From Octopus vulgaris (lineage: Eukaryota), in the NCBI GenBank assembly GCA_951406725.2, contig OX597818.1:39060001-39124000 (forward strand): a stretch of 64,000 nucleotides of DNA, given 5' to 3'. The position numbers and the translations under genes were made by a program. The notes below the pieces were generated by a model. That model worked only from the letters and a program-made list of their open reading frames with translations. It was not told where the DNA came from and did not search any database. Below, piece after piece: positions 4,193-62,827 of the stretch (position 1 is the stretch's first letter; every line of letters begins with the position of its first letter).

Positions 4193-4381
4193 ATTTTTGT
4201 CAGCGCCAATGATGGAGGACAACCACCTAAAAGTGCCTTTGCTGTTGTGACTGTTTTAGTATCAAGAAATCTGCATTCTCCTGTCATCACTTCTGGTCCG
4301 TCTATTCAAATATGTAGAAAAGAAAGCCAAGGTATTAGCCAACCTCTTTATCAGGTACAAGCTTCAGATGCAGATAGTGGG
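4193..4381 (+). CDS. cadherin exon 1 (long type, 63 aa IFVSANDGGQPPKS...VQASDADSG)
   Basis: tttttag|ATT...GGG|gtaag; AxDxGxPP and DxD motifs. Confidence 0.93.
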
Positions 4382-4825
4382 GTAAGTTATGCATTTTAAT
4401 TCATTAAGAAAATACAAAATAAGAAGATATAAATAAAAATTTTACTTATAATGCTGAAATAGGTAAATTAATGACACCTCATGATATTGGTGTGTAGAGT
4501 ATTTTGTATTTAAAATATAAATATGTATATATATATATATATATGATACATATATGCCTATATATATATGTATATATATATATATATGATACATATATGC
4601 CTCTATATATATGTATATATATATACACATGTATGCATATACATATATATGTATATATATATATATATACATATGTGCATATTTATATATATATATAAGC
4701 ATATATGTGTATATATATACATATATGCATATATATACATATATGTATCTATATATATATATACATATATATATATATATATATATATATATGTATATAT
4801 ATGCATATATATATATATATAGGAG

Positions 4826-5214
4826 GAGACACCCCTTCGGTCACGACACAGACCATGGGATTGCACATAGAAAGTTACCATCCTAGACACAAGTCCGGGC
4901 GAGGTTGCTTATGGAAGGCCAGCAGTCGCCTATGCATACCGGCCTTCCCTCTCCACGCCACAAGTGTTATCCAAGGGAAAGACAAAGGTCGACACAGCTT
5001 GGCACAAGTGACATCGCAACTCATTTCTACAGCTGAATGAACTGGAGCAACGTGAAATAAAGTGCCTTACTCAAGAACACAACACACGGCCCGATCCGTG
5101 ATTCGAGCTCACAACCTCACGATCATAAGCTCGACACTCTAACCACCTAGCCATGCGCCTTCACTGAGCCATGCGCCTTCACTGAGCCAATGCGCCTTCA
5201 CTGAGCCATGCACC
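4826..5214 (-). mobile_element. tRNA-derived SINE, family B, with tandemly amplified 5' end
   Basis: reverse complement of 15331-15651 and 45582-45908. Confidence 0.85.
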
Positions 5215-5221
5215 TATATAT

Positions 5222-6092
5222 ATATGAAAGAAGGTTTGAAAATGCAGTTTTAAAAGATATTTATTTACTTTAGCGGTTTCACTTTTTAGAAAAAGATTGT
5301 CAAAAGTAATATGTAAAAGTTTGGTTGTGTTAATTATTGGTTGTCACAAAGTGCTACAATATTTTAATGAACTTGTTATACAGTCTTTGGTAACAAGAAC
5401 ATGTTAAGGACATAAAAAAGTTCAACAAGTTCATTAAAATATTGGGCACAAAATATTACAACATATATATACATTCTCAAGAAAATTCTCAAGATAGTTT
5501 CCAGAAGGAATTATTAAAAAGTTCAGTGGAATATTGGTATTGTATCTGTATATATATATATATACACCCACAGAATATTGGTTGTCACAAAATACTACAA
5601 TACATATATACATTCTTTGGTAACAAGAACATGTTAAGAACATAAAAAAGTTTAACAAGTTCGTTAAAATATTGGGCACAAAAGATTACAACATATATAT
5701 ACATTCTCAAGAAAATGTTAAAGATAGTTTCCAGAAGAAATTATTGAAAAGTTCAGTGGAATTAGGTATTGCATCTGTATATACATACCCGCACAGAATA
5801 TGAGTTCAAAAAAGTTTGCATTATAGTAGTAGGGAAGCTCAAACTGACCTGGTCCACCATGTTATTGTAAAAGACTATTTTCTACTTCAAGTGACAGTGT
5901 GCCCAATATTTTAACGAACTTGTTAAACTTTTTTATGTTCTTAACATACCAAAGAATGTATATATGTATTGCAGTATTTTGTGACAACTAATAATTAACA
6001 CAACCAAACTTTTACATATTACTTTTGACCATCTTTTTCTAAAAAGTGAAACTGGTAAAGTAGATAAACATTTTCAAACCTTCTTTCATATA
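5222..6092. mobile_element. fold-back element: ~200-bp inverted arms plus internal ~241-bp tandem duplication; probable Penelope-like terminal repeats
   Basis: 5222-5450 is inverted at 5897-6092; 5336-5576 is repeated at 5577-5810; degenerate hammerhead core at 6021-6061. Confidence 0.65.
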
Positions 6093-6381
6093 TAATTCCA
6101 CTTGTGCGGTACCTTACAACTCCACTTTGTTATATATATATATATATAACCAGCTGATCTAGTGAGGGGGGCCGGTGCGCATTGATGCCGTCGAGAGGTA
6201 GGCCCCGAAACGGCGCGCATTCTCTCCTGATGACCCCATACACTTGCTAGCTTCCGATATACGGAGCTTTTAACTGGTAGCACTTACATGTGCAAGTTGT
6301 TTGCAAGATATATATATATATGCATATATATATATATATGCACATATATATATGCATATATATATATGCATATATATATAT

Positions 6382-7108
6382 ATAACTTAGAATAACTTAG
6401 AAAGGTTTTTGGCCAGTATTGGCCCAGGCCATGTCTAACTTAATAGCACCACCTGGCAAAGTCTTTCAGTTCAGGATTTGGGCACCAAGGCCCATTCGAG
6501 CAGAGAGTTATTGTTTGCGGAGACATATCCGGGTGTGGGTGGTTTGTCTGGTACTGTTTGAAGGAATTTGTCCAAAGACTTCTTGAATTTTGTGTGGTCA
6601 GTTTCTTTTTTGACGTGTCCTGGTGTAATGTTGAAGAGAGCGGGTCCAATTGAGGTGAAATAGTTGTGCCGTATTGTCGTTATGTGATGCGATTTAGATT
6701 TTTGTTGTGGACGGATGGCACGTGGTCCAAGCCTTGGATGCATTTTGAAGGTGATGCCAACATCATTCGGACAGTGCTGATGGAATATTTTCCACATCAT
6801 ACAGATAATGTAGCGTTCACGGCGTCGTTGGAGTAAATACAGTTTCAGCTTCTCTAGTCTACCCCAGTAGTCAAGGTCTGACATGCCATCTATCTTTTTT
6901 GTGATTGACCTTTGGGGAGCTTCAATTCTCATAATATTTTGTTTTGTGTAGGGAGACCACAGTGGACAGCAGTATTCAAGGTGGGGTCGGGCAAAAGTGG
7001 AGAAGAGAAGGATAATAGCGTGGGAATCTCTCGACTGGAAGGTTCTGAGAATCCAGGAACACATTCTGCGGGCCATGTCAACTTTGCTGCATATATGTGT
7101 AGCCCAAT
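6382..7108 (-). mobile_element. CR1/L2-like LINE 3' fragment inserted in TA-rich microsatellite
   Basis: [14 protein letters not shown]...QRSITKKI...[20 protein letters not shown]...FKKSLDKFL; (ttctaagtta) tail. Confidence 0.9.
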
Positions 7109-7512
7109 GCATATATATATATGCATATATATATATATATATATGCATATATATATATATGCATATATATATATATATATATATATATATATATATGCAT
7201 ATATATATATACATATATATATATATATGCATATATATATATATATATGCATATATATATATATATATATATATATATATGCATATATATATATATATAT
7301 GCATATATACATATATATATATATATGCATATATAATAATAAATATTAGGGAATAAATCCAAATTTACAGGGAAAAAATCAGATTTAGGATTAAATCCAA
7401 TTTTATAGTAAAATATTATAAAATATTATTAGAGACAAAACCACTATTTTGCAAAACAAACAAGGAAAGACTTAATCAATACATAAAATTTTAATAAATA
7501 GTAAAAAAACCG

Positions 7513-60402: not shown

Positions 60403-60678
60403 TATACATACACACACATACAAGCATTTATGCATTCATATATATATACCTAGTAACTTTTTTCGGTTATTATCTGAATTCTAGCTCACGAACCTACCTA
60501 ACAGTTTCATACACACACACACATATGTATGTATGTATGCATGCATACATGTATGTATGTGTGTGTGTATGTATATATATTTATGCATATATATATATAT
60601 ATATACACACACAAAGAAAAGAAAAGAATAAATAGAATCAAAAGGAAGAGGGAGTACGATTTGACAGCTGTTTAATGG

Positions 60679-60780
60679 CTACTACACATGTTTCGATGCA
60701 GCATAGATCCACATATATACAGGATTTAAATTATGTAACGTTTACCTGTATACTAGGACCTAGTTGTATCTCCTCAGGTG
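60679..60780 (-). ncRNA. decayed type I hammerhead motif with extended stem II
   Basis: CAC-CUGAGGA-GAUACAAC...GCUGCAUC-GAAAC-augu-GUA-GUA; core intact, stems mismatched. Confidence 0.55.
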
Positions 60781-61197
60781 ATATATAATTGTTGTCTCCG
60801 TAAATAAATGTTTGATTTCTTAACAGAATACACCTCAACTATATATATATTTATAGTGTGTGACTTTGTGTACAAATAGATGCAGAACTACTACTATTGA
60901 GTTTAGGGTAGCAAATGCTGAAGAAATTAAAATAAACACTCGTTTATATCATTTATTTCTAAGTTCATTTTACTATTATGGTTGTCTAGAACTCTACATT
61001 ATGTTGCAGAGAGCTGAAGTCTTTCGCTCTCTACAACATAATGCAATAATCTGTTCTCTGGTGATCTGTTGTGTTGTATTTAGAATATCCGATGCAGAGG
61101 TTAAAACAACCAGGAGAGTATAATGTACAGAAAAGAAGAAATGATATAAACATGTGTTTATTGTAATTTTTCATATATAGAATATAAAGAAAGTCAG

Positions 61198-61546
61198 AGT
61201 GGAGGTGCAAAGGTCCAGTGGTTAGGGCAGTGGACTCGTGGTTGGGAGATTGTGGTTTTGATTCCCAGACCTGGCGTTGTGTGTGTTTATTGAGTACAAA
61301 CACCTAAAAGCTCCACGAGGCTCCAGCAGGGGGTGGTGGCAACCCCTGTTGTACTCTTTCACCCCAACTTTCTCTCACTCTTTCTTCCTGTTTCTAGAGT
61401 AATGCTGTGATAGACGGGCATCCCGTCCAGCCGGGGGGAACAAAATATGCCATAGAAACCGGGAAACTGGGCCCATGAGACTGGCTAGGCTTGAAAAGGG
61501 TGCATAAATAAAAAATAAATAAATAAATAAATAAATAAATAAATAA
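61198..61546 (+). mobile_element. SINE with family C head but different 3' half, (AAAT)n tail, 12-bp TSD
   Basis: aaagaaagtcag at 61186-61197 and 61547-61558. Confidence 0.85.
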
Positions 61547-62137
61547 AAAGAAAGTCAGGAGGTATGAGATGAATATCTTTATTTAACCAGTTGATCCCTA
61601 TAGGATGAGGATTGTTTTGTGGCCAACATTATGGAAAAATAATTTATTATACCCTAAAATAAGTTATTTTTCTATGATGTTAGCTGCAAAATGATCATAA
61701 TCCTATGATATCAACTGGTGAAATAAATATATTCATCTCATATCTCCTCACGTTATATTCTATATACTCTTCATGAAATAATCTTCACTGATTGGTTTTA
61801 CGAGATTTCAGTTGCATAGGACTCTACATTACACACTTATGTATTGGTTTACTTTGTAGTTTGTAGCATGGTCCACTAAAGGGGCTTTTTTTTTTTAGTA
61901 TCACTGGATTATATAAATCCATTTTTGTGCGTGTGTGTTGTGTTTGTCTCCCATCACTGCCTGACATCTGGTGTTGGTTTGTTTATATCCCCATGATTTA
62001 GCAGTTTTGCAAAGAAAGAAGAAGTACCAGGTTTAAAAATAAGTACTGGGGTTGACTTGTTTGACTAAACCCTTCAAGGCAGCATCCCAGCATAGATGCA
62101 GTCCAAAGACTAAAACAAGTAAAAAGCTAAAAGACAT

Positions 62138-62568
62138 TCTCTTTTACTTGTTTCAGTCATTTGACTGTGGCCATGCTGGAGCACAGCCTTTAGTCGAGCA
62201 AATCGATGCCAGGACTTATTCTTTGTAAGCCTAGTACTTATTCTATCGGTCTCTTTTTGCCGAACTGCTAAGTTACGGGGATGTAAACACACCAGCATCG
62301 GTTGTCAAGTGATGTTGGGGGGACAAACGCAGACACACAAACATACACACACACACACACACACACACAGACACACACACATATATATATATATACATAC
62401 ATATATGCGATGGGATTCTTTCAGTTTCCGTCTACCAAATCCACTCACAAAACTTTGGTCGGCCTGAGGGTATAGCAGAAGACACTTGCCCAAGGTGCCA
62501 CGCAGTGGGATTGAACCCAGAACTATGTTGTTGGTAAGCAAGCTACTTACCACACAGCCACTCCTGCT
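62138..62568 (-). mobile_element. SINE family A, antisense, tail-to-tail with an older 3' fragment (61925-62130)
   Basis: reverse complement of family A. Confidence 0.9.
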
Positions 62569-62701
62569 ATAATAACTGCTATATTTATGACTTCTAAGTC
62601 ATGATGATGATTTTAGAATGTTAGTTTTGTCTTATTTTGAAAGTGAAACGCTTTATAACATTACAATTTAGATAACTGTCTTAAACAATTTTATATTTCA
62701 G

Positions 62702-62827
62702 CCTGACATTTCTTATACACTCACTGGTCTTAACCAAGCCATGGATTATTTCCAAATCAATGAAAGGGGAGATATAAGCGTGAAAAGTAGCTTAATTTCA
62801 GACAAATTCAAACAAACTGTTTATTAT
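62702..62827 (+). CDS. cadherin exon 23 (short, 42 aa PDISYTLTG...FQINERGDI...TVYY)
   Basis: atttcag|CCT...TAT|gtaag; not in the ORF track. Confidence 0.9.

Follow-up and report, generated by a model that had tools for sequence, protein, structure and literature searches.

Domain modules carried by symmetric exons belong to the concept of exon shuffling, and repeated exon units in cell-adhesion genes are known from the Dscam-type and clustered-protocadherin systems. The 2015 octopus genome paper is said to count "over 80" extracellular cadherin (EC) repeats in octopus and Capitella. An octopus cadherin of extreme ectodomain length, CDHX of Octopus bimaculoides, is cited in passages of PMC6339937 and PMC6110919 as having 77 ECs and being high in suckers; those passages contain no link to PCDH15 or Cad99C and no description of exons. 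Vertebrate PCDH15 (protocadherin-15), a human deafness gene, and insect Cad99C are defined by 11 ECs. According to excerpts of the two papers, the length of microvilli is controlled by Cad99C (PMC2171266), which also has a role in the hearing organ of the fly (PMC6031363) and is known from microvilli and stereocilia and from a complex with myosin VIIA (PMC2171266, PMC6031363). Here we analyze a stretch of 64,000 nucleotides (nt) of Octopus vulgaris (OX597818.1, positions 39060001-39124000, forward strand; hereafter the window), which covers a middle section, with 23 phase-0 exons, of a single giant cadherin gene. With good probability, this gene is a PCDH15/Cad99C orthologue whose ninth repeat, EC9, underwent 75-fold copying in an ancestor of early spiralians and has stayed frozen since, the exon rhythm being a fossil of the copying and the product one long, constitutively spliced tether.

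The genome was scanned with 400 kb flanks around the window, and the whole gene, with its ends near -79,755 and +338,760 relative to the window, spans ~420 kb (~38.98-39.40 Mb). Long and short exons alternate from -39.6 kb to +298.8 kb in an array of 150 exons (74 long, 74 short, one fused and one end exon, 11 of them placed via manual correction or a second search) encoding 75 domains. All 149 introns internal to the array are phase 0, and the flanking introns are of mixed phase. Upstream of the array there is a signal-peptide exon followed by irregular mixed-phase exons, with the signal peptide and the first part of EC1 present; downstream there are two more ECs, a membrane-adjacent domain (MAD), one transmembrane segment and a short tail. 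The 173 exons between -64,569 and +337,020 join into a frame of 8,901 residues with no stop, and the total number of ECs is ~85 (8 + 75 + 2). The closest proteins are octopod fragments: XP_052824185 of O. bimaculoides, GAB1602810 of Argonauta and XP_036359179 of O. sinensis. A protein search with the 105-residue fused exon gave 146 candidates, none at an expectation value (E) of 0.001, and no other octopus locus of this exon type ranked ahead in the genome.

Both flanks of the array point to PCDH15/Cad99C. The N-terminal chain aligns in order to EC3 into EC9 of Cad99C with 31% identity, and the C-terminal part aligns in order to EC9-EC10-EC11, the MAD, the transmembrane segment and the tail with 28-30% identity; as the first alignment runs into EC9 and the second starts at it, each end of the array has a match to this repeat. 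When the array domains were scored against all 11 ECs of locust Cad99C, fly Cad99C and a PCDH15-like protein, EC9 was the best-scoring repeat for 51, 49, and 47 of 73 domains, respectively, for a chance expectation of ~7 of 73. The octopus protein shares with Cad99C and PCDH15 a signal peptide, the ordered EC3-EC8 and EC10-EC11, a predicted membrane-adjacent ferredoxin-like domain, one transmembrane segment, and a tail with an E-T-Q-x-L-x-M motif and a C-terminal ETTTxL. It also shares canonical linkers 4-5, 6-7, 8-9 and 10-11 and non-canonical linkers 3-4, 5-6 and 9-10, the pattern of canonical and calcium-poor linkers described for PCDH15 in the part of PMC7547225 available to us. However, EC9 is present 75 times in octopus, the EC9-EC9 junctions show an R-N-x-N-x-P linker absent from Cad99C and PCDH15, and the cytoplasmic tail is shorter. 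Judged by these sequence features, the gene is likely a PCDH15/Cad99C variant by descent and not a standard member.

A profile search with the C-terminal part including the transmembrane region retrieved 125 proteins, with the spiralian giants first and the named Cad99C proteins next. Ten of the 125 were looked up by name: two belong to Patella, one to each of Batillaria, Tubulanus, Lingula and Seison, one is a further protein, and three are Cad99C clusters. The Seison protein (P0108), a cadherin of 3,592 residues, is related in its transmembrane-tail part but has few R-N linkers and lacks a clear order of the two repeat types A and B described below. In the predicted fold of the Argonauta orthologue fragment (predicted local distance difference test, pLDDT, of 70), a beta-alpha-beta-beta-alpha-beta domain precedes the transmembrane helix at residues 497-586; this ferredoxin-like order, as in MAD12, is predicted on the Argonauta orthologue and not on the gene of the window. 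Foldseek with this model placed PCDH15 on top (6c13) and gave 6eet the best target-normalised template modelling score, although many other cadherins score too. The MAD showed no Pfam match, the AlphaFold model of the O. bimaculoides fragment (five sequences, pLDDT of 34) was set aside, and the atlas matches, with scores of 0.85 or less, are leads only.

Several observations weigh against this reading. Between 22 and 26 of the 73 array domains score best on another repeat, mostly EC6 in both Cad99C comparisons, and ~85 ECs do not agree with the 11-EC definition of PCDH15/Cad99C. In the octopus genome, the Cad99C EC3-4 stretch has this gene as its best match, but weakly (E of 0.016), and a search with the Cad99C transmembrane-tail stretch did not find the locus. 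The tree was built without a CDH23/Cad87A outgroup and is no test of orthology. About 190 residues, from the end of EC1 through EC2 to the start of EC3, were not located, and the interval holds a gap of 100 Ns. The set of sequences compared offers no orthologue for units 7-15, which make up most of the window; the A/B order fails for units 70-73; and calcium binding, shape and location of the product are predictions only. Since the reciprocal searches are weak and the tree has no outgroups, orthology is likely but not proven. As for the missing interval, EC2 was found neither by tblastn nor by a search of the octopus genome, and the EC1-EC2 tip, the CDH23 handshake surface, is present in the unionid orthologues. 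The N gap lies at L009:8183-8282 (window ~-71.8 kb), where the end of EC1 and EC2 are expected, and remnants of a reverse transcriptase like that of long interspersed nuclear elements are found near it (~-68.5 to -67.4 kb).

The same weak reciprocal searches speak for a spiralian-specific paralogue, or for a chimera with borrowed Cad99C-like ends, and the existence of two genes of this kind in Patella and of two mollusc groups in the tree points in the same direction. Both flanks and the linker fingerprint nevertheless match Cad99C in order, the transmembrane-tail part turned up only once in the octopus genome, and no short Cad99C-like mollusc protein is among the ten matches looked up by name, so that we regard a paralogue or chimera as quite improbable. 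Two giant genes of this kind are seen in some gastropods (Patella P0033 and P0034; P0031 and P0030).

Public gene models split the gene into pieces named Fat4- or CELSR-like, and such automatic names on orthologous fragments ("protocadherin Fat 4", "CELSR2-like") are what speaks for a Fat- or CELSR-like cadherin. Neither an EGF nor a laminin-G domain precedes the single transmembrane segment, and, unlike the mostly canonical three-calcium linkers of Fat and CELSR cadherins, the canonical calcium motifs are absent from the array (DxNDxxP in 0 and LD[RY][ED] in 1 of 74 units), compared with 13 DxNDxxP motifs in a 1,782-residue frame of a large-exon cadherin on contig C13; the large-exon cadherins lie on other contigs. 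A Fat or CELSR identity, which we give almost no credence, was rejected on the C-terminal domain content. The initial annotation had proposed that the gene may form a family separate from Fat; the distinction from Fat holds, but the gene is likely a PCDH15/Cad99C orthologue with EC9 amplified instead of a separate family.

The gene is probably octopus CDHX, by repeat count and not by sequence identity, with ~85 ECs counted here versus the 77 cited. An unusually long cadherin thereby gains a likely identity and origin: what has been taken for an octopus sucker novelty would be an ancient PCDH15/Cad99C, enlarged before the mollusc-nemertean-brachiopod split and in register since. This would make a PCDH15 counterpart testable in cephalopod hair cells and microvillar epithelia, as well as the mechanics of a chain of one-calcium linkers and the reason for which a two-domain register is conserved. 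In the literature we found nothing on the exon structure of the gene or on a PCDH15/Cad99C link, although the 2015 genome paper and the 2017 cadherin review may state part of it. Names of the type "pcdh15" occur in the portions seen of PMC7465212 and 10.1101/2022.01.24.477459, where a link to this gene could not be made; the latter describes its protocadherins as not homologous to vertebrate ones. The passages of PMC5473995 and PMC8325961 deal with classical cadherins and hold nothing on this gene.

The loss of calcium motifs can be read from the repeat that was copied. In the part of PMC5120219 at hand, EC9 of PCDH15 lacks exactly XEX, DYE and DXNDN, and of its two flanking linkers one is canonical and the other calcium-free; by sequence motifs, the octopus gene likewise has a calcium-free EC9-10 linker between canonical EC8-9 and EC10-11 linkers, in keeping with the excerpts of PMC5120219 and PMC7547225. 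Because EC9 is canonical at one end only and without the base motifs, copying it yields half sites, and a 75-fold amplification of this single domain would explain why the DYE and DxNDN motifs are lost from the array. In the array, DxD is kept in 57 and the top D in 59 of 74 units, and in 64 of 74 the linker, measured from the final residue of the strand up to the proline, is seven residues long, one fewer than in the canonical motif. Of the octopus linkers, 29 of 36 even ones versus 20 of 37 odd ones (p = 0.024) have the full four-residue set expected for calcium site 3; the oyster values are 24 of 25 versus 15 of 22. One ion per array linker and an alternating stiffness are predictions from these residues. 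With 4.5 nm per cadherin repeat, a value taken from a passage of PMC8691648, the product of ~9,200 residues and 85 ECs is predicted to reach up to ~380 nm if straight. By analogy with Cad99C and PCDH15, a role on microvilli or other apical projections is likely.

Array units are 26% identical on average and 43% at most, and the copying is therefore old. Repeats alternate between two types, A and B: the best match of a unit has the same parity in 67 of 74 units, a leave-one-out call gets 70 of 74 right (all but units 70-73), and none of 10,000 permutations reached the observed A/B difference. For lags of 2 to 48, similarity at each even lag exceeds that at the odd lags next to it, and no clear period beyond 2 was found in the array; in the leading eigenvectors of an unsupervised analysis, parity is mixed with the position of a unit in the gene. 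The alternation therefore argues for a first copy of a single domain and later growth by four-exon, two-domain blocks. The initial annotation had the gene grow by tandem duplication of a long plus short exon pair; tandem duplication stands, and the first single-domain copy corresponds to such a pair, but the later unit comprised four exons.

In the sequence of events we propose, the starting point would have been an EC9 whose two phase-0 introns lay behind DxD and ahead of strand F. A whole-domain copy would then have fused one EC9, at its F-G end, with the A-B start of its successor, giving the long exon and, at the same time, the one-residue-shorter R-N-x-N-x-P linker. The two EC9 copies would have diverged into types A and B, and the four-exon A+B block would have been amplified. 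As EC9 brings the top ligands (DxD, xDx) without the base ones (DYE, DxNDN), each array junction would hold at most one calcium ion, at site 3, and not three. A decayed copy of the 3' part of L45 (L and S denote the long and short exon of a unit), 105 nt long and 84% identical, lies in the intron after L44 (L022:74-178; G000:C5:39224074-39224178) and indicates that local exon copying still happens without being fixed as an exon. Similarity between intron flanks is also present, but it was taken for simple repeats and not used.

The A/B alternation is also found in the proteins of oyster, Solemya, Plakobranchus, Patella, Lingula and Tubulanus, gastropod, nemertean and brachiopod thus included. 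Octopus units 18-74 map one to one on oyster K1QB61 with no whole-unit gaps (diagonal sum of 149, next 43), with 24 of 60 partners ranking first and 38 among the top three of 74; the first two oyster unit matches are confused by an exon duplicated in the gene model. Solemya units 37-74 map gap-free (92, next 28) and two Patella proteins are in order (60 versus 26 and 51 versus 21), and the unit order gives 23 versus 20 with Tubulanus and, weakly, 38 versus 28.5 with Lingula. In bivalve gene models, several gaps and duplications have their start directly behind DxD or their end directly ahead of strand F, which suggests, at the level of the bivalve proteins, that introns lie at the same positions there. 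The likely identity, a PCDH15/Cad99C with EC9 present 75-fold in a two-domain register shared across spiralians, is the more valuable result; the phase-0 pattern alone is ordinary, an expected trace of tandem duplication.

To control for bias in exon calling, a splice-site matrix trained on the window was applied phase-blind to 123 exons outside it: 121 acceptors and 121 donors were phase 0, versus 80 and 60 expected from a random pick among the available sites. The joined non-array parts of the gene show phase 0 in only 12 of 23 introns. If each intron is treated as an independent case, the phase-0 pattern far exceeds chance; as array introns are copies of two ancestral introns, it stands for only about two independent events. 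On contig C22, a cadherin gene rich in introns, with irregular exons and canonical calcium motifs (G000:C22:16803572-16898355, minus strand), has only two of 14 tentatively called donors at the two array positions, and the intron regularity is therefore special to this array. The C22 gene is putatively Cad87A/CDH23-like and would be a candidate partner. As in symmetric-exon modules, all array exons are symmetric and tandem copying keeps the frame, but the array introns lie inside the domain and not at its borders, no exon equals a domain, and the class is 0-0.

Whether the array serves as a splicing cassette, with pairs, four-exon blocks or long runs skipped for tether length or chimeric domains, bears on the constitutive part of our reading. 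Every exon skip stays in frame, and the proposal that skipping a pair is in frame and makes a chimeric domain holds. The all-phase-0 pattern is nevertheless no evidence of use, because copying two phase-0 introns yields the same. RNA-type contigs were aligned to window positions 43100-51200, covering four exons with contigs of four runs; the RNA nature of these runs is presumed, their contigs do carry spliced joints, and assembled contigs drop rare splice forms. Junctions 43537>46129 (run X8), 46257>48072 (X8 and X13) and 48257>50901 (X1, X8 and X13) are matched to the base, a single contig of 8,182 nt spans L15-S15-L16-S16 in order, and contigs of X1, X8 and X13 show consecutive exons; the remaining 19 window junctions are called from sequence alone. 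No skip joint occurs among the 15 joints listed of 52. No alternative exon cassette was found in the 149 array introns, which hold only one decayed partial copy, and the A/B alternation through units 1-69 and the one-to-one order with oyster over units 18-74 also speak against skipping.

Evidence for skipping, and against a single tether, comes from two unionid models compared with octopus unit by unit, the global alignment being fragmented and discarded. Those of Sinanodonta and Potamilus keep both ends and units 1 to ~6 and lack ~54 and ~57 units; both jump from the same long exon (~L6), to S60 in Sinanodonta and S63 in Potamilus, with the breaks right after DxD. The unionid proteins P0010 and P0011 are apparently complete, with 3,387 and 3,648 residues, and lack ~57 and ~54 units. 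In addition, one S+L pair is missing at exon borders from the oyster model P0015, oyster isoforms vary at the post-DxD position by three residues, and in one X1 contig of low depth the 49 letters following L15 could not be placed on S15. Gaps in predicted gene models are common artefacts, and the unionid short models may be true deletions, isoforms or model errors. Taken together, use as a cassette seems unlikely, and length tuning or combinatorial isoforms, as put forward in the initial annotation, find no support in the introns or in the joints listed. The two checks it had named were answered in part: junction-spanning contigs show consecutive joins over four exons and no pairwise skip among the joints listed, and the repeat order is the same in oyster over units 18-74 and shortened in the two unionid models. 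It is similarly doubtful that the spiralian tip-link protein, rebuilt as a ~380 nm tether of 75 half-calcium-site EC9 copies in A/B pairs, uses the array as a length dial, in which skips from an early long to a late short exon, as the two unionid models read, would yield short and long tethers from a single gene and set the reach of microvillar, cuticle or hair-cell links by tissue. The gene also differs from the Dscam-type and clustered-protocadherin systems, with which it shares repeated exon units in a cell-adhesion gene: the long/short alternation is strict over 150 exons, the serial units are 26% identical, there are no mutually exclusive arrays, and the units run consecutively in the RNA-type contigs examined.

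Among the oyster isoforms X1-X3, the only difference is a stretch of three residues (DGS) that follows DxD at two places, in odd-type units; two assembled-run proteins differ likewise. The oyster insert (P0007, P0017, P0020, P0021 and P0022) is possibly a 9-nt micro-exon or a shifted splice site; a search for a similar micro-exon in the 464-kb octopus region gave no candidate. Five oyster models (P0013, P0014, P0018, P0021 and P0022), which share ~94-95% identity with the main gene, start within unit 49, have a signal-like hydrophobic N-terminus of their own and represent a partial duplicate or an internal start.

Within the window, a scan for AG-GT-bounded open exons with two small profiles re-found the 23 exons exactly at the lengths first listed, all multiples of three, and the 22 phase-0 introns; the three junctions examined all match RNA-type contigs. 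Each exon has AG before and GT after, is open from the first base and divisible by three, and all introns are GT-AG and lie at two positions of the repeat. Eleven are located 0-2 codons past the strand-B DxD position and 11 directly ahead of strand F, which bears AxDxG, as the initial annotation had placed them, except that one exon is fused and that DxD itself is lost in some long exons. Long exons encode strands F-G, the linker and strands A-B, short exons encode strands C-E, and no exon corresponds to a whole cadherin domain.

The array part in the window (4193..62827, plus strand, as are all its exons) comprises units 8-19 of the 150-exon EC9-derived array. It begins with L8 (4193..4381, 189 nt), S8 (8494..8619, 126 nt), L9 (10363..10551, 189 nt) and S9 (14068..14220, 153 nt), which has a nine-residue N-terminal extension. 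The fused L10+S10 (19329..19643, 315 nt) is a long plus short pair, the sole array unit without the post-DxD intron, and matches Pfam Cadherin (E of 1.8e-08). It is followed by L11 (21645..21833, 189 nt), S11 (23232..23357, 126 nt), L12 (25519..25704, 186 nt), S12 (30094..30234, 141 nt), L13 (30934..31119, 186 nt), S13 (33925..34056, 132 nt), L14 (36575..36769, 195 nt) and S14 (40984..41106, 123 nt). RNA-type contigs contain the donor of L15 (43346..43537, 192 nt), both ends of S15 (46129..46257, 129 nt) and of L16 (48072..48257, 186 nt), and the acceptor of S16 (50901..51017, 117 nt). The last exons are L17 (53544..53726, 183 nt), S17 (55108..55245, 138 nt), L18 (55497..55679, 183 nt), S18 (57045..57179, 135 nt), L19 (59543..59719, 177 nt), in which DxD is lost, and S19 (62702..62827, 126 nt). 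The intron before L8 carries five copies of a 61-bp GC-rich tandem repeat at window positions 3338-3641.

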